A stretch of DNA of 64,000 nucleotides from Leptospira biflexa (lineage in GTDB: Bacteria > Spirochaetota > Leptospiria > Turneriellales > DYLW01). The notes beneath the pieces were generated by a model. The model had not been told where the DNA came from and ran no database searches. It saw only the letters and a list, made by a program, of their open reading frames with translations. The stretch lies in contig DYOA01000005.1 in the NCBI GenBank assembly GCA_020720785.1, forward strand, positions 9,809 through 73,808, read 5' to 3'. The translations under genes and the position numbers were made by a program. This document shows, piece by piece, positions 37,750 through 46,758 of the stretch. Positions within the stretch are counted from its first letter, which is position 1. Each line of letters starts with the position of its first letter.

Positions 37750-39960
37750 ATGATAAACGAAAAAAATAAAGTAAGCCGCCGGGAGTTTATAAAGATTTCC
37801 GGAGCTACCGTTGCGGCAGCAGCGGCGGCGTCAGCAGGTGCAGGTTATTTATTCAGCGAGATAAAAACAAATAGTGATGGGAAAACAGACAGAAAGATAG
37901 TGAATACATACTGTGATGTCTGCTTCTTCCAGTGTGGTCTGAATGTTACGGTGGAGAACGGCGTAGCGGTTAACATTGAAGGAAATCCCCACCATCCGCT
38001 TTCCCGTGGGAAATTGTGTCCCCGTGGGACCGGCGGATTGGGACAGCTTTATGATAAAGATCGGATAAAAAATCCCCTGAAAAGAACTACGAATCTCTTG
38101 GGGCAACAGACATTCAAGGAAATTTCCTGGGATCAGGCTTTGGATGAAATTGCAGAAAAAATGAAAGAAATTATCGGTAAATACGGACCCCAATCCATGG
38201 GTATGGTTAAGCATGGGAAGGGAGCGGAACCATGGGAGCAGTTATGGCATGCAATTGGATCCAAAACAGAAGGGCATGCATCCTTTGCACAATGCAGGGG
38301 TCCAAGAGACGTGGGCTGGATCATTACCTATGGTTCCAATCCGGGTTCACCGGAAATGGTAGCTTTGGATAAGGCCGAAGTGGTTGCCTTCATTGGCGGG
38401 CACCTTGGCGAAAACATGCATAATATCAATGTGCAGGATTTCGCACTTGGATTGAAAAACGGGGCCCGTAACATTGTTGTGGATCCACGGCACTCCACGA
38501 CTGCGGCAAAAGCCAAATACTGGCTTCCCATTAAACCGGGCACGGATACAGCGTTGCTTCTGGCGTGGATGAATGTACTTATATCGGAAGGTCTTTATGA
38601 CAAGGCCTTTGTTGCCAACCATACTTTGGGATTTGATAAGCTTTCTGCTCATGTGAAGAACATGACTCCGGAATGGGCAGCCGCCTATACCGGCCTGGAT
38701 GCGGAAGCGATCCGTGCCACAGCGAGGGAATTAGGAAATGCAAGAGGAAAATCTCTGGTATGGCCGGGAAGAAAATATGTATGGTATGGAGATGATACAC
38801 AGAGAGCCCGTGCGGTGGCGATACTGAACGCCCTGTTAGGGGCATGGCACAATGAAAATGCCCTTTTCCCCGGCGATAGATTTCCACTTCCCGAACCAAC
38901 CCTGGGGCACCATTCCCACAAGAAAGGGAAGAAAGCATTTGACCAGATGGCAAAATATCCCTTTGCCACCGATGTGCCCGCCCAGGATATCATGGCGTCT
39001 GCCATCCCGGGGAAATACGAAGCCGGAAAAGATGCTACTGTTAAGGGTATGGTGATTTACAGTTCCAATGTGGTCACATCCATCCCCAATGGCCGGGAAT
39101 TATCGGAACAAATGGCAGAGAACCTGGACTTGCTGGTGGTGGTGGAAACCATGCCGGCAGAGATTACCGGATTTGCGGATTACGTCCTTCCGGATACAAC
39201 GTATCTGGAAAGATACGACGTTCTGACCGCACCACCATGGAGAGAGCCTTTCCTGGCTATCCGCCAGCCTGTGGTGAAACCTTTGCATAATTCCAAACCT
39301 TCCTGGTGGATTGCTCTGCAACTGGCCAAGCGGTTGGGATATAAAGAAGAGTTTGGCTATGAGGACTACAAGGAAGTAATTGAAAACCAATTGGCACAGA
39401 TTGGTTCTTCCATTGATGATATTAATAAAAACCACGGAGTTTTGAAAAAGGAATATAAAAAGCCTCCTATGAAACTAAAAACTCCTTCCGGAAAGGTGGA
39501 ACTGTATTCCGAACTGTTGGCCTCCGCCGGATTTGATCCAATGCCGGTTTTTAAACCCCCCGTACCCGGACCGGAAGGATTCCTGAGGTTGTTATTTGGA
39601 AGGGCACCCCAGCATACTTTTACACGAACCACCAACAACACACTTCTCCGAGAGGTTTACAGTGAGAACGATGTGTGGGTGAACCATAAAGTGGCCAAAA
39701 GGTTTGGACTGGAGAATGGCCAATATGTGGTTTTAATGAACCAGGATGGCGTCAAGAGTGACAAAGTTAAAGTCCGGGTGACAGAAAGAATCCATGAGGA
39801 CTGTGTTTATATGGTCCATGGGTTTGGAAGGCGGGACAGAAGATTAACAAAGGCATATAAAAAAGGTGCCAGCGTTGGCGAATTGGTAACCAAATATGAG
39901 ATTGATCCCATTATGGGCGGGACCGGCTCCCAGGTGAATTTTGTGACATTCACACTATAA
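37750..39960 (+). CDS. Periplasmic molybdopterin (bis-MGD) oxidoreductase catalytic subunit, PhsA/PsrA-type (thiosulfate/polysulfide reductase-like)
   Basis: 736 aa. The Tat signal is SRREFIKISGATVAAAAAASAGAG. The N-terminal FeS cluster motif C-x2-C-x3-C-x27-C is CDVCFFQCG...GKLCPRG. Confidence 0.85.
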   Translation: MINEKNKVSRREFIKISGATVAAAAAASAGAGYLFSEIKTNSDGKTDRKIVNTYCDVCFFQCGLNVTVENGVAVNIEGNPHHPLSRGKLCPRGTGGLGQLYDKDRIKNPLKRTTNLLGQQTFKEISWDQALDEIAEKMKEIIGKYGPQSMGMVKHGKGAEPWEQLWHAIGSKTEGHASFAQCRGPRDVGWIITYGSNPGSPEMVALDKAEVVAFIGGHLGENMHNINVQDFALGLKNGARNIVVDPRHSTTAAKAKYWLPIKPGTDTALLLAWMNVLISEGLYDKAFVANHTLGFDKLSAHVKNMTPEWAAAYTGLDAEAIRATARELGNARGKSLVWPGRKYVWYGDDTQRARAVAILNALLGAWHNENALFPGDRFPLPEPTLGHHSHKKGKKAFDQMAKYPFATDVPAQDIMASAIPGKYEAGKDATVKGMVIYSSNVVTSIPNGRELSEQMAENLDLLVVVETMPAEITGFADYVLPDTTYLERYDVLTAPPWREPFLAIRQPVVKPLHNSKPSWWIALQLAKRLGYKEEFGYEDYKEVIENQLAQIGSSIDDINKNHGVLKKEYKKPPMKLKTPSGKVELYSELLASAGFDPMPVFKPPVPGPEGFLRLLFGRAPQHTFTRTTNNTLLREVYSENDVWVNHKVAKRFGLENGQYVVLMNQDGVKSDKVKVRVTERIHEDCVYMVHGFGRRDRRLTKAYKKGASVGELVTKYEIDPIMGGTGSQVNFVTFTL

Positions 39961-39987
39961 AGGGCAAAGGAAAAAAGAGAGGATATT

Positions 39988-40548
39988 ATGGCAAGATATG
40001 CAATGTCAATTGACTTAACCACATGCGTTGCCTGCGACGCCTGTGTGGTCGCCTGTAAAATGGAGAACCATGTTCCCGATGGCTTTGCCAGGGACTGGAC
40101 GGTTCAGGTAATTAAAAACCATTTTCCCAATTTTGTGGCCGATCTGTATTCCAGCAGATGCCAGCACTGCGAAAACGCTCCCTGTGTATCCGCATGCCCC
40201 ACTGAAGCATCGTACATAAAGGACGGAATTGTTCTGGTAAACAAAGATCTTTGCGTGGGCTGTGAACACTGCGTGGCGGCTTGCCCCTATGGAGCACGGT
40301 ATCTGCATCCGGAAGGGTTTGTGGATAAATGTACCTTCTGTGACCATAGACTGGGCACCGGAAAAGATCCTGCTTGTGTGGAAATCTGCCCCACGTATTC
40401 GCTTACCTTTGGGGATCTGGATAATCCGGAAAGCGAAGTGGCCAAGCAGCTCCAGGATCGCAAATACAAGGTACTGAAACCGGAAGAAGAGACCCAGCCC
40501 AAGTATATTCTTCTGGAATCCATAACAGAAAAAGCGTTCACCAAGTGA
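39988..40548 (+). CDS. Four-cluster [4Fe-4S] electron-transfer subunit (PhsB/PsrB/DmsB family)
   Basis: 186 aa with four Cys groups: CVACDACVVAC, CQHCENAPCVSACP, CVGCEHCVAACP and CTFC..CVEICP. Confidence 0.85.
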   Translation: MARYAMSIDLTTCVACDACVVACKMENHVPDGFARDWTVQVIKNHFPNFVADLYSSRCQHCENAPCVSACPTEASYIKDGIVLVNKDLCVGCEHCVAACPYGARYLHPEGFVDKCTFCDHRLGTGKDPACVEICPTYSLTFGDLDNPESEVAKQLQDRKYKVLKPEEETQPKYILLESITEKAFTK

Positions 40549-40555
40549 GGTAATT

Positions 40556-41122
40556 ATGGAAAAGCAAAATGTAAAACAACCATTTTTTCAGAAATTCAGT
40601 GAGAATCCAAAACCTTATATGAACCCGTATACAGCGGGGGTTATTGTGGGCTTTATTCTCTTCTTATCGTTCATACTCATCGGCAAAGGCCTGGGAGCAT
40701 CCGGGGCCATCACCCGGTCCGTGCTCACCTTCATCTCACTGTTTGTGCCGGATCATGCGGCAGCGGCTCCTTATTACCAGAAGTATCTGGGGAGCACCAC
40801 CCATTCCCTTTATGACTGGCTGGTGTTCATGTTCATTGGTTCCGCTGTGGGTGGATTTGTCTCCGGTATGATGAACAGACGGATGAAAGTGGAAATTTTT
40901 AAGGGAGAACAAATCTCCAATAAAAAGCGCCTGTATCTGGCTTTTCTGGGTGGTTTCATTACTTTCATTGGTGCCAGACTCGCGGAGGGTTGTACCAGCG
41001 GTCACGGACTCACCGGCGGTGCCATGCTGGGAGTTGCCGGTTGGATTTTTTTAATGGGGGTTTTTGCCTCCGGTTTTATTACTGCGTTTTTCATCAGAAA
41101 AACCTGGATATCAAAGGAGTAA
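40556..41122 (+). CDS. YeeE/YedE-family sulfur-transport membrane protein, half-size (part 1)
   Basis: 188 aa with 4-5 TM segments. It has the conserved loop LAEGCTSGHGLTGG, typical of the sulfur transport domain. Confidence 0.75.
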   Translation: MEKQNVKQPFFQKFSENPKPYMNPYTAGVIVGFILFLSFILIGKGLGASGAITRSVLTFISLFVPDHAAAAPYYQKYLGSTTHSLYDWLVFMFIGSAVGGFVSGMMNRRMKVEIFKGEQISNKKRLYLAFLGGFITFIGARLAEGCTSGHGLTGGAMLGVAGWIFLMGVFASGFITAFFIRKTWISKE

Positions 41123-41125
41123 ACC

Positions 41126-41731
41126 ATGGATGCACCACTGTTTAAATATGGAGTACTGGGAGATCCCGGACTTGTGTTCTGGGGTCTGATAATTGGATTT
41201 ATTTTTGGCTATTTTCTGGAAAGCGGTGGATTTGGAAATTCCATCAAGATTGCCGGAGTTTTTGTGGGGGAAGACTGGCGGGTGTTCAAAATGATGTTCA
41301 CCATCATCATTACCGCTATGATACTCACATTCGGCTCTTTTTATCTGGGAGTGATTGACATATCCGTGGTTCAGCTTGCCAGCGTGAACCTTTGGCCTCT
41401 GCTTGTGGGAAGTCTCATCTTTGGGGTGGGTATGTCCATTGGTGGTTATTGCCCAGGAACATCCGTTGTTTCTGTGGTCACCCGGAAACTGGACGGATTA
41501 GCTTTCCTTCTGGGCGGGCTGGTTGCCATTTTCTTTTATGCGGAAACATTCCCTCTTTTTGAAGGCTTTACTAAAAGCGGTAATTTGGGGGCCATCATGC
41601 TTCCCGACGTTTTTGGTGGGAGCTATGCCCTCTGGGTTTTTATAATCACTGTGCTGGGTCTGCTTGCACTGGTCTTTATTGATAAGGCAACTGGCAAGCT
41701 CTATGCCTGGGATAAAAAGAAAGGAGAATGA
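41126..41731 (+). CDS. YeeE/YedE-family sulfur-transport membrane protein, half-size (part 2)
   Basis: 201 aa, polytopic, with the loop GMSIGGYCPGTS. It starts 3 nt after part 1. Confidence 0.75.
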   Translation: MDAPLFKYGVLGDPGLVFWGLIIGFIFGYFLESGGFGNSIKIAGVFVGEDWRVFKMMFTIIITAMILTFGSFYLGVIDISVVQLASVNLWPLLVGSLIFGVGMSIGGYCPGTSVVSVVTRKLDGLAFLLGGLVAIFFYAETFPLFEGFTKSGNLGAIMLPDVFGGSYALWVFIITVLGLLALVFIDKATGKLYAWDKKKGE

Positions 41732-41732
41732 A

Positions 41733-42374
41733 ATGAACATTTTAGCAGAATTAAAGAAAGACAAGGTTCAGTTCCTGTTCACTCTTCTGGCTCTGAACGC
41801 TGCCGTAATTTTACTGGTGGTCAGCTTTTTTTCCGGCAACAAAGCCTTTGCCGTGCCGGATTTAAAAATGTATGAAAATGAATTAAACCAGACTGCCGTT
41901 TCCTCCGATGATCTGGCGTCTCGCCTGGAAAGAGGGGAGAGATCCTTTCTTCTCACTCAGGTGATGAGTGAAGAAGATTATGCTTATGCAAAACCCATAA
42001 AAAGCGGTTTTTTCTTGGATGCAGCGGATCTGGCCGATGGAAGATCGTTCAGAAAATCCTTGCCGTTTATTTCGGTGCCACTCATCGTCATGGGAAAGAA
42101 TACCCAGGAAAGCTTGGAGTATGCAAAACTCCTGAAATACTATGGCTACCAGAATGTGCGGTACGTAACCGGTGGTTATGAAGAATTTGTGAAAGATATT
42201 CTGACCCGTCCGGAGGATTTGGCCGTGGGAACACAGGATGAAAAAAAGGCTCATGACCGCAAAATGTCCCGGTATTATTACTTTATGGGCGGAGACCCTA
42301 ATCTGGGTGCAGAAACCAAAGCAGCCCCGGCATCATCCGGTGGCGGTGGTATTGCTGCGGCAGAAGGATGCTAA
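41733..42374 (+). CDS. Membrane-anchored rhodanese-homology protein lacking the active-site Cys, with a Gly/Ala-rich tail ending in Cys
   Basis: I placed the start at the ATG at 41733 (AAAGGAGA upstream); the ORF-track extension to 41664 lies inside the preceding gene. It has an N-terminal TM helix. The rhodanese-like core is SSDDLASRLERGE..., then PLIVMGKNTQESLEYAKLLKYYGYQNVRYVTGGYEEF. The C-terminus is SSGGGGIAAAEGC. Confidence 0.6.
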   Translation: MNILAELKKDKVQFLFTLLALNAAVILLVVSFFSGNKAFAVPDLKMYENELNQTAVSSDDLASRLERGERSFLLTQVMSEEDYAYAKPIKSGFFLDAADLADGRSFRKSLPFISVPLIVMGKNTQESLEYAKLLKYYGYQNVRYVTGGYEEFVKDILTRPEDLAVGTQDEKKAHDRKMSRYYYFMGGDPNLGAETKAAPASSGGGGIAAAEGC

Positions 42375-42384
42375 GGAGAAGTTA

Positions 42385-43374
42385 ATGAAAAAGAATGCAA
42401 AATATATCAAATTTTTTCTGTCTCTGGCCCTTGCGGCCGGCATTGGCGGGGCGGTCATTATCCCCCGGCAAACAATGAATGCTGTATCTGCGGAACAGAC
42501 GGAAAAGGTATACACAGAAGTTCATGGAGAAAGAGACTTACCTTATCTGGTGAATAATATCCATAAACTGGTAAAACCATATAATTACATCATTGGGAAA
42601 ACAAAATACCTGTGGATTGAGATTCTGGGATATCTCTTAACCCTGGGAGTTTTTGCCGGGGTAATGGGACACGCTCTCCTGAGGGTTTTCTTCAATTACA
42701 AAAACCAGAAAGCCCAGCCATACCAGTATGTACACACCGGAGAAGATTTTATTTATGATGGGATCATCCGCACCGGCCACTGGCTGAATGCACTGTTTAT
42801 CATCACGCTAATCATTACAGGTTTTGCGATGCACTATTCAGGCCCCAGCCATGTTCTGGGCTATCTCCATAATATGACAGGAATCAGCCTGACGGTTCTG
42901 TATATTTTCTTTTTAATCCATGCGGTGGTCCGTCTGGATTATAAACAGTATTTCCCTGGCGTAAAGGAAATTCTTTCCGGACAGTTGATTAAGGATTTAA
43001 TAAAAAACGGTATGTTTTACCTGCATGGCATTTTTATGGGCACAAAAAATCCTTTCCACTCATCCCATGAACACAGATTGATGCCCATCCAGAAGGTGTC
43101 CTATATGGCGGCTATGTATATCCAGGTTCCTCTGGTGATTATGACCGGAGTAATTCTGGTGGAGCCCGCTAATCTGCCATTTGTGGTTTCCCTCATTGGA
43201 ATGGAGAACATGAATTTCGTTTTCATTGTCCATCTTCTGGCGGCGTTTACCGTATTCATGTTTTTGATCATTCACTTATATATGATCACAGCCGGGGATA
43301 AAATTGCCCAGCACTTGATGACCATGGTGACAGGATACCATAAAACATACCAGAAAAAAGATGTATCCAAATAA
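42385..43374 (+). CDS. Dihaem cytochrome b membrane subunit (PhsC/FdnI/HydC, Ni_hydr_CYTB-like family)
   Basis: I placed the start at the ATG at 42385 (AAGGAGA upstream). It has the signature IRTGHWLNALFIITLIITGF and further TM histidines (LIHAV, IVHLL..IIHLY). Confidence 0.65.
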   Translation: MKKNAKYIKFFLSLALAAGIGGAVIIPRQTMNAVSAEQTEKVYTEVHGERDLPYLVNNIHKLVKPYNYIIGKTKYLWIEILGYLLTLGVFAGVMGHALLRVFFNYKNQKAQPYQYVHTGEDFIYDGIIRTGHWLNALFIITLIITGFAMHYSGPSHVLGYLHNMTGISLTVLYIFFLIHAVVRLDYKQYFPGVKEILSGQLIKDLIKNGMFYLHGIFMGTKNPFHSSHEHRLMPIQKVSYMAAMYIQVPLVIMTGVILVEPANLPFVVSLIGMENMNFVFIVHLLAAFTVFMFLIIHLYMITAGDKIAQHLMTMVTGYHKTYQKKDVSK

Positions 43375-43388
43375 TTTTTGGTATTGAG

Positions 43389-43868
43389 TTGGATAAAGAA
43401 AAAAAGGAAAACGATCCTCTTTCCAGGAAAGATTTTTTTACTTTGCTTCTCCAATTTTCTTTTTCCCTGGATACATGGCGGGGGGCAGTTCTCCCCGCTT
43501 TTTTTTTGCTCACCGGCATTATCTTTCATCTGTCCAATAAAGCTCACCAGAAAACCGGAACCTCCGGAAAAACCATTGAACTGCCGGAAGATTCCATTCT
43601 GGATGGATTGAATATTTATCCGAAATTTCTGGCATCACGGCAGGATGGAGAGACCATTTTTTTATCCAACCGCTGTACGCATCTGGGGTGTAAAATTCAG
43701 AAAAAAAATAAAGACCATTTTATATGCCATTGCCATGGTTCCCATTTTGATACATGGGGGCGGGTGTCGCAGGGTCCAGCGGATTCCCCGTTACCCCGCC
43801 TGGCATCGGAAAAAATTCATAGAAATGGGCAATCTATTTATAAAATCCACATCCATGAGACATCATGA
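43389..43868 (+). CDS. Rieske [2Fe-2S] protein
   Basis: Box I is CTHLGC, followed by 11 residues and box II CHCHGS. It has an N-terminal TM anchor and an SRKDFF Tat-like segment. Confidence 0.8.
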   Translation: MDKEKKENDPLSRKDFFTLLLQFSFSLDTWRGAVLPAFFLLTGIIFHLSNKAHQKTGTSGKTIELPEDSILDGLNIYPKFLASRQDGETIFLSNRCTHLGCKIQKKNKDHFICHCHGSHFDTWGRVSQGPADSPLPRLASEKIHRNGQSIYKIHIHETS

Positions 43869-44731
43869 AATCGGTTTTTTCCAAGAAATGGAGCGTTTTC
43901 CGCTTTGGGGATTTTTCTTACGCATTTTTCTGGATTGCAGTCCTGTCCGGGGCAATCTTGGCTGTTTTTTACCAGCCACAGACGCCGGAGCTCTCCATTC
44001 AGGAAAATCTGATACAGAATCCTTATTTTTCCCTTTTCCGGGATATGCATTATTTCTCCGCAAATTTTTTTATCATAACCCTGCTCCTGCATTTCTGGGA
44101 TTATTTCCCGTTTATCCAGAAGGATGCCATAAAACCCGGTCGATGGATGACGATGCTTTTTTCTTTATTTCTCTCCTTCTATCTGATGATCTCCGGCTTT
44201 ATTCTGAAGGGGGATCTGGATTCTCTTCTGGCTCTGGATGTATTCCGCGGGCTGATGACCAGACTACCGGTTGCGGGGAAAGACTTATCGGCTTTTTTTA
44301 CGGGGAGCGGTTCCAGCCTTATGGTGGTTTATCTCCAGCACGCTGGAATAGCCACCATTCTTACTCTGGCGATCATCTATGAACACTCCCGGAAGAGATG
44401 GCCTGCCGGGGAAGTATTCATTTATAGTTTTATAGTTACCGGGGTGGCATCGCAGATTTGGAATGCTCCGATAAAAATGCCCTACGATGTTGTGGTAAAA
44501 GGACCCTGGTATTTCGTTGCCTTCCAGGAGGCACTGCACCACATTCCGCAACCCGAATATTTTTTATCTTTGCTGGCGGTTTTGTTTATTATCCTGTATC
44601 TTTACGATTATACCAGGGATAAAACCAGAAAAATTGCGATTGGTTTTTTTCTGTTCTGGTTTATTCTTTATCTGGTGGCGACGGTGATTGGTTTATATTT
44701 CCGGGGGGAGAACTGGAGCTGGGTATTATGA
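43865..44731 (+). CDS. Cytochrome b of a Rieske/cyt b (bc/b6f-type) complex, compact ~8-TM form
   Basis: The haem ligand pairs are H-x13-H (HYFSANFFIITLLLH) and H-x14-H (HAGIATILTLAIIYEH). The Qo-motif position reads GPWYF. It overlaps the Rieske gene by 4 nt. Confidence 0.75.
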   Translation: MKSVFSKKWSVFRFGDFSYAFFWIAVLSGAILAVFYQPQTPELSIQENLIQNPYFSLFRDMHYFSANFFIITLLLHFWDYFPFIQKDAIKPGRWMTMLFSLFLSFYLMISGFILKGDLDSLLALDVFRGLMTRLPVAGKDLSAFFTGSGSSLMVVYLQHAGIATILTLAIIYEHSRKRWPAGEVFIYSFIVTGVASQIWNAPIKMPYDVVVKGPWYFVAFQEALHHIPQPEYFLSLLAVLFIILYLYDYTRDKTRKIAIGFFLFWFILYLVATVIGLYFRGENWSWVL

Positions 44732-46758
44732 ACTGGTGGAAAATAAATATCTCCGGATTAGTTTTTTCTGTTCTGGTGACCGTGTTTCTGGCCGCTCTGG
44801 TGTTTGACACCATCCGGCAGGCAGGTATCATCCGGGAAATTTCTTCTCTTACGGAGAGCGTCCCCGTTATCAATGGCTCCAAAGAAACCTGTCTGTCCTG
44901 CCATTCGGAGATGACCGGCTTCTCTCCGTCCCATGACCCATCGGCCATTGGGTGTTCCTCCTGCCACTTGGGAAACCCCTTCAGTCTGGACAAAGAAGAA
45001 TCCCACAAGGGAATGGTGACTGTCCCTGGCAATCTCCAGAATGCCCATATAACCTGCGGGAAGTGTCATGCAGAAATTGAACATAATATCCACCATTCCA
45101 TGATGGCCACCGGTCGGGGATTGGTGACAGTCAACCAGTATGTGTTCATGGAATCAGAGTCCCCGGACGGAAAGGGACAGGTCCGCCGGAAGTATAAAGA
45201 TTCCAAAAAGGATCTGGCCTCCGGGAAGCAATTCCATCTTTCCCGGCTGGATGAAAAAATCCCATCCGAAAAACACCTCCGCCAGCTCTGTGCCACCTGC
45301 CATCTGAACTATGAAAAAATGGAGCCGGGTCCGGTGGAACAGACGTCACGGGGAGGAGGATGCAATGCCTGTCATATCCGTTATTCCCCGGCAGCACGGG
45401 AGCAGTGGGAAATTTACCAGAATGATAAAACGGAGCTGCCCCAAGTCCATCCGGAGCTGACACAAAACGTGCCCAATGAGCACTGCTTTGGATGCCATTC
45501 CCGCTCCGGACGGATTTCCACCAATTTTGAAGGCTGGCATGAAACCATGGAAAAAACTCTGCCGGATTTGTCCGCCCGGTACCGCAAGCTTCAGGATGGC
45601 CGGATTTTCCGGAAGATGCCGGCGGACATCCACCATGATCTGGGTTTTACCTGTATTGACTGTCACTCCTCCGGAGAGACCATGGGAAACGGAAAAGCAT
45701 ACTGGCATAAGGAAGAACAGCTGGAAGTGGGCTGTGGTGACTGTCACCGGGATGATTGGGAAAACGCATCTTGGATTCCAGCGGGGGATCTTCCGGAGAC
45801 TGACCGTAGAGTGGTGGAGCTACGGGGATTATACCAGAAGGATAGAAAATTCCTGCTCACAGGGAAGAGAAAAGTGCCTCTGACCAATGTGTATCAAGAT
45901 AACGGACGGGTGATTCTGGCCGGGAAGCTGAGCGGGAAAACCTTTGCCCTGCGGGAGAATTCCCGTGCCTGCGTCCACGCCCGGAAAAACCATGAAAATC
46001 TTCGCTGTGAGAGCTGCCATAATTCTTGGGCACCGCAGTGTATTTCCTGCCATACCGGATATTCCAGGGAATCAGCGGCGTATGATCATTTGAAAAGGGG
46101 ACCGGTAAATGGCCGATGGGTGGAGAAAGCCGCACCGGGAAGTTATCTGGCAAAGGCCCCGGTACTGGGGGTTCTGGAAACCTGGAATGGGAAGAAAGAA
46201 ATTTCCACTTTTTCTCCGGGAATGGTGCTCACAATTTCCATACCGGAGGAGATGGAGCATTTTACCACAGGCATACGCAAAGAGAAATATTATCACCCGG
46301 CCAGCGGAAAGTATGAAATTTTCCAGCGGCTCCACGCCCAGGGTTTTTCCCATACCATCCGGAAGGAAACCCGGAGTTGCCAGAGTTGCCATCAATCCTC
46401 CCATGCCCTGGGTTGGGGGGAGGGGGTCATCCAATTCCAAAGTTCTTTGCCGGCAGAAGGGGAATCTCTGGAGGATTTTATCCGCCGGGGTCTTCATTTT
46501 ACCCCGCAATATGAAAAACATCCGGTGGATGGTCTGCCGCAGGATGCCTGGATAGCACCGTGGGAGGATCCCAGGGGGAAAAGAAGCCATTCCACCCGTT
46601 CCAATTTGCGGCCATTTACCCCGGAGGAACAATGGAAAATTCTGGTGCCAGGCACCTGCATGACCTGTCATGATCCCATACGCCAGAAACATCTTTATGA
46701 CAATTTTCCGCAATCCGTTCAGTATTTTCAGAAATGCCGGAAGCTAAAAAAACCTTGA
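44728..46758 (+). CDS. Membrane-anchored multihaem cytochrome c (12 CxxCH motifs)
   Basis: 676 aa with an N-terminal TM helix. The CxxCH motifs are CLSCH, CSSCH, CGKCH, CATCH, CNACH, CFGCH, CIDCH, CGDCH, CESCH, CISCH, CQSCH and CMTCH. Confidence 0.9.
   Translation: MNWWKINISGLVFSVLVTVFLAALVFDTIRQAGIIREISSLTESVPVINGSKETCLSCHSEMTGFSPSHDPSAIGCSSCHLGNPFSLDKEESHKGMVTVPGNLQNAHITCGKCHAEIEHNIHHSMMATGRGLVTVNQYVFMESESPDGKGQVRRKYKDSKKDLASGKQFHLSRLDEKIPSEKHLRQLCATCHLNYEKMEPGPVEQTSRGGGCNACHIRYSPAAREQWEIYQNDKTELPQVHPELTQNVPNEHCFGCHSRSGRISTNFEGWHETMEKTLPDLSARYRKLQDGRIFRKMPADIHHDLGFTCIDCHSSGETMGNGKAYWHKEEQLEVGCGDCHRDDWENASWIPAGDLPETDRRVVELRGLYQKDRKFLLTGKRKVPLTNVYQDNGRVILAGKLSGKTFALRENSRACVHARKNHENLRCESCHNSWAPQCISCHTGYSRESAAYDHLKRGPVNGRWVEKAAPGSYLAKAPVLGVLETWNGKKEISTFSPGMVLTISIPEEMEHFTTGIRKEKYYHPASGKYEIFQRLHAQGFSHTIRKETRSCQSCHQSSHALGWGEGVIQFQSSLPAEGESLEDFIRRGLHFTPQYEKHPVDGLPQDAWIAPWEDPRGKRSHSTRSNLRPFTPEEQWKILVPGTCMTCHDPIRQKHLYDNFPQSVQYFQKCRKLKKP

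Follow-up and report, generated by a model that had tools for sequence, protein, structure and literature searches.

Two adjacent genes, here called YA and YB, encode the two pieces of what is, according to profile alignments and predicted models, a complete nine-helix YeeE-type channel, cut after helix 7 (H7) with neither gap nor overlap. They lie in a stretch of 64,000 nucleotides (nt) assigned to Leptospira biflexa (GenBank assembly GCA_020720785.1, contig DYOA01000005.1, positions 9,809 to 73,808 of the forward strand), and this whole stretch is referred to as the window. The C-terminal piece (YA) is encoded ahead of the N-terminal piece (YB). A rhodanese-homology protein ending in cysteine comes after YB or is fused to it, and the resulting trio recurs inside operons for the reduction of periplasmic sulfur compounds. 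The explanation that we rank first, at about even odds, is that YA, YB and the rhodanese form a covalent sulfur-relay unit in periplasmic S–S reductase complexes, with sulfur flowing inward. The pair is as follows.

40556..41122, + strand: YA, 188 amino acids (aa), predicted C-terminal piece of a YeeE-type channel (equivalent of H8-H13), four transmembrane (TM) helices, N- and C-termini predicted to be cytoplasmic
41126..41731, + strand: YB, 201 aa, predicted N-terminal piece with the central helix (equivalent of H1-H7), five TM helices, N-terminus predicted outside and C-terminus inside

A preliminary description made from the sequence alone had reported two open reading frames of 188 and 201 aa, 3 nt apart, each with one cysteine-containing loop, and all of this is present on the + strand. 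The YA stop codon TAA occupies 41120-41122 and the YB start codon ATG begins at 41126, while an AAGGAG ribosome-binding site overlaps the final codons of YA. Each protein has a single cysteine, Cys146 in YA (TGT, 40991-40993; motif LAEGCTSGHG) and Cys109 in YB (TGC, 41450-41452; motif GGYCPGTS). An assembly artefact as the cause of the split is ruled out, since the YA stop/YB start junction is spanned without an indel by contigs of four further public runs, from soil, biofilm and cave metagenomes. In the search for related loci each species was represented by one genome, and at least 577 relatives came back; tblastn with the proteins of the window operon and four further queries was then applied to the 80 best-scoring loci, which are not a random sample and show 39-51% identity across at least 8 phyla. 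A scan of metagenomes gave no match with a single protein query and nine loci with an alignment query. Among the related loci, 78 continue downstream of YA, and in every one of them YA and YB are two genes, with YA first and YB second.

Both proteins belong to the Sulf_transp family (Pfam PF04143) on hidden Markov model search, YA with 70.1 bits and YB with 55.2 bits against a gathering cut-off of 27, covering profile positions 176-309 and 3-149, respectively. The TsuA equivalogs NF041049 and NF052577 (cut-offs 645 and 400) are missed by YA (23.6 and 27.7 bits) and by YB (21.5 bits), and the best NCBIfam match of YA, the YedE/FdhT selenium membrane protein NF033796, reaches 32.8 bits where the cut-off is 350. 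YB likewise stays below the cut-off of 27 for DUF6691 (PF20398) with 19.9 bits, and it is 37% identical to a Sulfuricella protein annotated as DUF6691. The internal repeat of the family is barely visible between the two chains, because BLASTP finds no similarity between YA and YB and hhalign of their family profiles gives a probability of only 13% (E 0.002), confined to the cysteine-loop hairpin.

The correspondence to the solved channel of Spirochaeta thermophila (StYeeE) was read from family profiles of 49 YA and 46 YB relatives. These profiles were required, as phmmer against the PDB with the single sequences gave a marginal result for YA and no match for YB. The YB profile matches StYeeE residues 4-120 (E 1e-7 to 2e-5), laying GGyCPgts over the C91 loop, and the YA profile matches residues 235-329 (E about 1e-9), laying GCtsG over the C293 loop. 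AlphaFold2 monomer models (mean predicted local distance difference test scores of 78 for YA and 82 for YB) tell the same story: residues 16-190 of the YB model superpose on 6LEP 1-187 with Z 9.5 and a root mean square deviation of 2.7 Å over 163 residues, the fifth YB helix falling on H7, and residues 19-181 of the YA model superpose on 6LEP 187-328 (VIA-align) with Z 5.4, at rank 1 of 48,161 chains. In the predicted monomer models only both chains together reach the nine TM helices and four re-entrant loops of the pseudo-222 hourglass. Alignment to the YeeE repeats thus assigns the N-half plus H7 to YB and the C-half to YA. The heterodimeric channel envisaged in the preliminary description gains from this correspondence, and the adjacency of the genes in 78 of 78 loci fits it; the idea itself is already published for the split pairs PmpAB and YedE1E2 and hence is not new.

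Both cysteines aligned with essential residues of the solved channel are retained. Cys109 of YB aligns with C91 and is invariant in 46 sequences, and Cys146 of YA, placed in a periplasm-facing re-entrant loop, aligns with C293 and is invariant in 49; C91 and C293 are essential in StYeeE (PMC7449682). The third family cysteine, C22 in loop LA, is absent from YB, where the aligned residue is Gly; C22 is dispensable in StYeeE and not in E. coli YeeE (PMC7449682). Lysine and arginine counts place the termini and the 107-121 loop of YA inside, the N-terminus of YB outside and its Lys-rich C-terminus inside, with family means for in-facing against out-facing residues of 9.8 and 4.1 in YA and 7.1 and 1.6 in YB. 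By the positive-inside rule the two chains would therefore lie in opposite orientation, as the two halves of YeeE do, the loop orientation in YeeE being taken from its structural study (PMC7449682).

The third obligate part of the YA-YB module is the Cys-tailed rhodanese, for in 78 of 78 loci YB is either followed by or fused with a rhodanese-homology protein that has a C-terminal cysteine. The window protein has no catalytic cysteine and ends in ...AAAEGC, and in its homologues the catalytic position is Ser or Gly. The separate form has about 200-240 aa and ends in ...KKKKEGC, while the YB::rhodanese fusions (a double colon marks fused genes) have about 395-455 aa and end mostly in ...GGCG. 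The fusions carry a sixth TM helix after a Lys/Arg-rich cytoplasmic linker, which places the rhodanese domain in the periplasm. The tail varies by clade, being ...EEEEGC or ...AAAEGC in the window type, ...KKKKEGC in the PsrABC type and ...GGCG in the type with an octahaem tetrathionate reductase (OTR). The YA loop varies along with it, reading G/E-GC in the window type, where the Arg beside the loop cysteine is lost, and RGCTSGQ in the others.

In the window the pair sits between the iron-sulfur subunit and the membrane cytochrome b of a periplasmic enzyme, and the flanking genes agree with what the preliminary description had said of them. The remaining genes of the operon (37750-46758) are listed here.

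37750..39960, + strand: PsrA/PhsA-type molybdopterin catalytic subunit, periplasmic, with a twin-arginine translocation (TAT) signal (Pfam Molybdopterin, Molybdop_Fe4S4, Molydop_binding, TAT_signal)
39988..40548, + strand: PsrB/PhsB-type subunit with four 4Fe-4S clusters (Pfam Fer4_11 and related families)
41733..42374, + strand: rhodanese-homology protein (Rhd), secreted or membrane-anchored, periplasmic (Pfam Rhodanese, a weak 21.9 bits)
42385..43374, + strand: PhsC-type di-haem cytochrome b, quinol-interacting membrane anchor (Pfam Ni_hydr_CYTB, 67.5 bits)
43389..46758, + strand: Rieske protein, cytochrome b and multihaem cytochrome c (Pfam Rieske, Cytochrome_B, cytochrome c3/c7 families)

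The catalytic subunit matches the Thermus thermophilus polysulfide/thiosulfate reductase PsrA (2VPW) over its full length (E 4.8e-175); with the NCBIfam PhsA model it reaches 398.6 bits and misses the cut-off of 694. For the iron-sulfur subunit the top NCBIfam families are NrfC, DsrO and TtrB, each below its cut-off, and the anchor scores 114 bits as thiosulfate reductase cytochrome b subunit where 204 are required. All three elements of a Psr/Phs operon are there: a homologue of PsrA/PhsA exported by TAT, a subunit with 4Fe-4S clusters and a membrane subunit that interacts with quinol, the last being of the PhsC (cytochrome b) type in the window and of the NrfD type in most relatives. Substrate specificity is not readable from sequence.

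The preliminary description had called this position of the pair unusual, and the survey found it conserved instead. The window order, PhsA-PhsB-YA-YB-Rhd-PhsC followed by the Rieske/cytochrome b/multihaem c genes, recurs in the sister genome and five metagenome contigs (loci L084, L086, L088-L090 and L093, where L numbers are our locus handles), and close variants of it number at least 20 in the PsrABC type and at least 39 in the octahaem-reductase type. The arrangements outside the window type are the following.

Class 1: PsrA-PsrB-NrfD-YA-YB-Rhd, 20 loci (and 3 partial)
Class 2: OTR-(multihaem c::cytochrome b561)-YA-YB::Rhd, 39 loci (and 5 partial)
Class 3: OTR-YA-YB::Rhd, 2 loci
No reductase within 6-10 kb, with extra signal-peptide rhodaneses: 4 loci

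The OTR gene matches the Shewanella octahaem tetrathionate reductase 1SP3 (E 7e-144). A maximum-likelihood tree of YA+YB separates a molybdenum (Mo)-linked from an OTR-linked side with 100% support in the Shimodaira-Hasegawa-like approximate likelihood ratio test (SH-aLRT); the Mo-linked side consists of the window-type clade (99% SH-aLRT) and class 1 (99%), and phyla are mixed within each side. The refuting condition named in the preliminary description thus receives a mixed answer: split pairs are indeed the common form, but the present clade is linked specifically to periplasmic reductases of sulfur compounds. Since YA-YB and the carrier recur inside sulfur-compound reductase operons, the pair is suggested to be part of respiratory machinery. 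Apart from MobA and regulators of varying type, a census of neighbours outside the module found nothing conserved. In relatives a small regulator gene immediately precedes that of the reductase, encoding ArsR (6 of 11) or Rrf2 (4 of 11) in the OTR type and MerR (7 of 11) in the PsrABC type; the ArsR protein of one locus matches BigR with E 8.6e-11.

Natural fusions join the channel to its neighbours. A profile search of the full library gave 148 clusters at E 1e-30, 1253 at 1e-10 and 4179 at 1e-3, and six cluster representatives among its top hits (P0149, P0162, P0164, P0167, P0184 and P0223) have a Ni_hydr_CYTB cytochrome b (b561) fused ahead of YA. The fusion of P0149 has 491 aa and 11 members of the same length from several sources. 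Some lineages thus have the half-channel and the cytochrome b of the quinol side in one protein, which lends meaning to the operon that cytochrome b and YA share in the window. No true YA-YB fusion occurred among the matches; the few long YA-YB matches were set aside as singletons in which the YA part ends half-way and which resemble frameshift merges, and two apparent fusions proved to be stop-codon read-throughs.

The central cysteine of YB may be replaced in close relatives. An in-frame TGA takes the place of its codon (GGY-TGA-PGTS/PATS) at L088:6636-6638, L086:10873-10875 and L089:6418-6420, which are the nearest metagenomic relatives of the window, come from three samples and have the window gene order. 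Conservation of the YB protein persists past the TGA, and the PhsA genes of the same three contigs have no internal TGA. The codon is probably read as selenocysteine (Sec), and a 7-bp hairpin with an AGGU/GGGU loop lies 14 nt downstream. Exchange of Cys for Sec is typical of nucleophilic, redox-active residues, and this apparent exchange at the pore centre points to nucleophilic pore chemistry. Among the selenoproteins given in a 2026 review are one of YeeE/YedE type, with the motif GUxSG, and one of the OTR family (PMC13188914); the GUxSG motif is different from the YUPG of the YB site.

The relay that we rank first would work as follows. YB (H1-H7) and YA (H8-H13) would pack antiparallel as a heterodimer and rebuild the hourglass pore, with YA Cys146 at its periplasmic mouth and YB Cys109 at its centre. 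The rhodanese-like protein would be anchored beside the pore, its single cysteine on a flexible SoxY-like tail, so as to make a fixed three-part sulfur-trafficking unit. This unit would be integrated in membrane complexes that reduce S–S bonded periplasmic sulfur compounds, whether Psr/Phs with PhsC, PsrABC or OTR-type. Sulfane (zero-valent) sulfur would be carried covalently on the tail cysteine and passed to the outer channel cysteine, then to the central one, by thiol or selenol exchange, and on to the cytoplasm; one carrier-bound sulfur pool would be common to reductase and channel. The inward direction is what we infer by likeness to all characterised members of the family.

Several observations weigh against this relay. 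The pseudo-symmetric pore could run either way. The Cys partner is periplasmic here and at the receiving end in TsuA-TsuB, which by analogy could argue for outward flow. The cysteines of StYeeE are thought to hydrogen-bond thiosulfate and not to bind it covalently (PMC7449682). The match of the YA model to 6LEP has a Z score of only 5.4, and Foldseek gave no match for this model. In two of the three contigs the hairpin after the TGA does not exceed shuffled sequence in stability. Finally, TusA (PF01206), DsrE and NIR_SIR were not found in the 98%-complete host genome, and neither a cytoplasmic sulfur acceptor nor a downstream pathway was identified in it. As no NIR_SIR-type sulfite reductase is found there, import of sulfite looks unlikely as well.

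The main rival of the inward relay is delivery in the opposite direction, in which cytoplasmic sulfane sulfur would pass through the channel to the Cys arm in the periplasm, and the arm, serving chiefly the reductase, would offer it to the Psr or OTR active site, for disposal or respiration of intracellular zero-valent sulfur. The periplasmic partner would then mirror YeeD at the receiving end of TsuA, the cytochrome b::YA fusions would link the channel to the redox anchor, the module has diversified along with the reductase type in the YA+YB tree, and a search of the genome found no cytoplasmic sulfur acceptor (TusA, DsrE). We nevertheless hold outward flow to be unlikely, because every characterised family member imports, YedE1E2 was tested and did not speed up export (PMC10812762), stand-alone trios occur that have no reductase nearby and retain additional periplasmic rhodaneses with signal peptides, and the module has no linked enzyme that would generate sulfane sulfur in the cytoplasm.

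Thiosulfate uptake, sensing and selenium uptake rank lower. That the pair is a two-piece TsuA importing thiosulfate for cysteine synthesis, with carrier and reductase as loosely related neighbours, would fit the tiling of the thiosulfate channel StYeeE with C91 and C293 kept; OTR yields thiosulfate from tetrathionate, and reduced sulfur would be needed in a genome in which NIR_SIR is not found. The NCBIfam TsuA scores of 21.5-27.7 bits against cut-offs of 400-645 speak against this plain anion uptake, as does the missing essential partner TsuB/YeeD (TusA family, PF01206), found neither in the genome nor in the window operon. A simple assimilatory permease would also not be expected to be strictly linked or fused to cytochrome b and a carrier with a Cys tail, and we regard such a role as distinctly improbable. 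It is slightly harder still to favour sensing, in which only a trickle of sulfur would be imported, enough for a cytoplasmic regulator to perceive substrate in the periplasm and to activate the reductase operon; a role of this kind has been proposed for SoxT1B-SoxR. The upstream regulators of the relatives, one of them BigR-like, and the SoxT precedent (PMC11582611) are in its favour. The regulator family, however, differs between classes, no MerR-, ArsR- or Rrf2-type regulator adjoins the window operon, and the cytochrome b fusion and the Sec variant suggest a catalytic over a signalling role. Selenium uptake by a YedE-type importer feeding selenophosphate synthetase is highly improbable: YedE/FdhT is the top, though weak, NCBIfam match of YA, and SelD is encoded in a genome whose only Sulf_transp member is YA/YB, but the match has 32.8 bits against a cut-off of 350, 23 relatives have SelD without a YA match, and the linkage of the module is to reductases of sulfur compounds and to rhodaneses instead of sel genes.

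Beyond the relay itself, it is conceivable, if rather doubtful, that channel, Cys-tailed carrier, di-haem cytochrome b and periplasmic Psr/Phs or OTR reductase form one supercomplex acting on protein-bound sulfur, a reductive counterpart of Sox in which the SoxY-like arm would move back and forth between pore and reductase active site, and sulfur would cross the membrane by a covalent Cys/Sec relay and not as a free anion. Were this true, the OTR family would gain a physiological substrate, a carrier-bound persulfide or thiosulfonate. Already as arranged, the loci amount to natural experiments: a channel has been cut after H7 and its pieces fused to a cytochrome b (YA) and to a Cys-arm carrier (YB), its central cysteine is apparently exchanged for Sec in close relatives, and it occurs within operons for two unrelated types of respiratory reductase. 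Octahaem tetrathionate reductases are in this way linked to a defined sulfur-trafficking unit. Direct tests would be allowed by two cultured carriers, Chondrinema litorale WSW3-B12, which has the class 1 arrangement, and Fulvitalea axinellae DSM 100852, which has OTR-cytochrome b-YA-YB::Rhd on pFA1 (L094:6774-10737).

YeeE-family channels are known as importers of assimilatory or oxidative pathways. A periplasmic sulfur-binding protein that serves a periplasmic sulfur enzyme is familiar from Sud-PsrABC of Wolinella succinogenes and from SoxYZ. Sud has a rhodanese active-site cysteine and no channel, and SoxY, no rhodanese itself, belongs to an oxidative pathway; the partner tails ...GGCG and ...EGC resemble the C-terminal GGCGG arm of SoxY. 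Among split pairs, PmpA (C-half, C293) and PmpB (N-half, C91) of Serratia are short, and a heterodimer was proposed for them (PMC11582611), while YedE1E2 imports zero-valent sulfur only with both genes and both cysteines, export being no faster (PMC10812762). PmpA/PmpB and YedE1/YedE2 (Cupriavidus pinatubonensis, Sinorhizobium meliloti) share with YA-YB the adjacent genes, a C-half-like piece first and one conserved cysteine each, but they have about 130-145 aa and four TM helices each and are reported without H7, where YA has 188 aa and YB has 201 aa with H7. Their neighbours are persulfide dioxygenase, ArsR regulators and TauE, whereas the YA-YB clade is accompanied by the Cys-tailed rhodanese and usually by Psr/Phs or OTR operons. 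Intermediate split pairs, of 146-175 aa with a 200-aa DUF6691 protein, are present on Sulfuricella and Cupriavidus plasmids.

SoxT and TsuA are both importers (PMC11582611, PMC7449682). TsuA/YeeE with TsuB/YeeD (Spirochaeta thermophila and E. coli; PDB 6LEO, 6LEP, 8J4C) has in common with YA-YB the fold, two essential cysteines in re-entrant loops and a Cys-bearing partner. It differs in being a single chain of nine TM helices with a third cysteine, C22, a cytoplasmic TusA-like partner and an assimilatory role; YA-YB has two chains in permuted gene order, Gly in place of C22, a periplasmic rhodanese-like partner and a respiratory context. SoxT1A/SoxT1B of Hyphomicrobium denitrificans are likewise YeeE-like importers tied to a periplasmic Cys-arm (SoxY) pathway with an ArsR-type regulator nearby, but they are full-length single chains of the oxidative Sox/sHdr system, unlike the split YA-YB with its own tethered carrier in reductase operons. 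In the searchable literature we found no description of a YeeE-type channel built into respiratory S–S reductase systems, equipped with a SoxY-like arm and occurring in forms fused to cytochrome b and in a probable Sec form, and no paper joining octaheme tetrathionate reductase with YeeE/YedE.

YA/YB is the only Sulf_transp match in the host genome of 2.59 Mb, and of 40 related genomes from its order or class only the one belonging to the same genus has a YA match. Because of this patchy distribution the operon looks horizontally acquired. Some further arrangements were noted in the collection. A four-gene unit of OTR homologue, multihaem c::cytochrome b561 or plain cytochrome b, YA and YB::rhodanese (GGCG) at L010:5881-11765, with 38 similar loci, is widespread in Chloroflexota, Myxococcota and Pseudomonadota. 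An Ignavibacteriales contig (L026:3049-11824) carries tandem modules, an OTR/cytochrome b-type YA-YB followed by PsrA-PsrB-NrfD-YA-YB-Rhd. At L066:12830-16583 a decaying Psr-type module, with PhsA in at least six pieces, PhsB fragments and short remnants of YA and YB, stands beside an intact OTR-type module. The Rieske/cytochrome b/multihaem c trio also lies beside the module in L004, L006, L015, L074, L078, L086 and L088-L090, and examples of the upstream regulators are at L004:5313-5750, L012:5316-5654 and L037:5601-6059. An AIRS-domain gene two genes downstream was considered as a selenium link (SelD) and proved to be PurM. The SelD of the host genome itself, at G000:C26:5188-6102 (L096), is located within a frame of 622 aa and appears to be fused or extended, the frame having 615 aa in the sister genome and about 345-378 aa in relatives.

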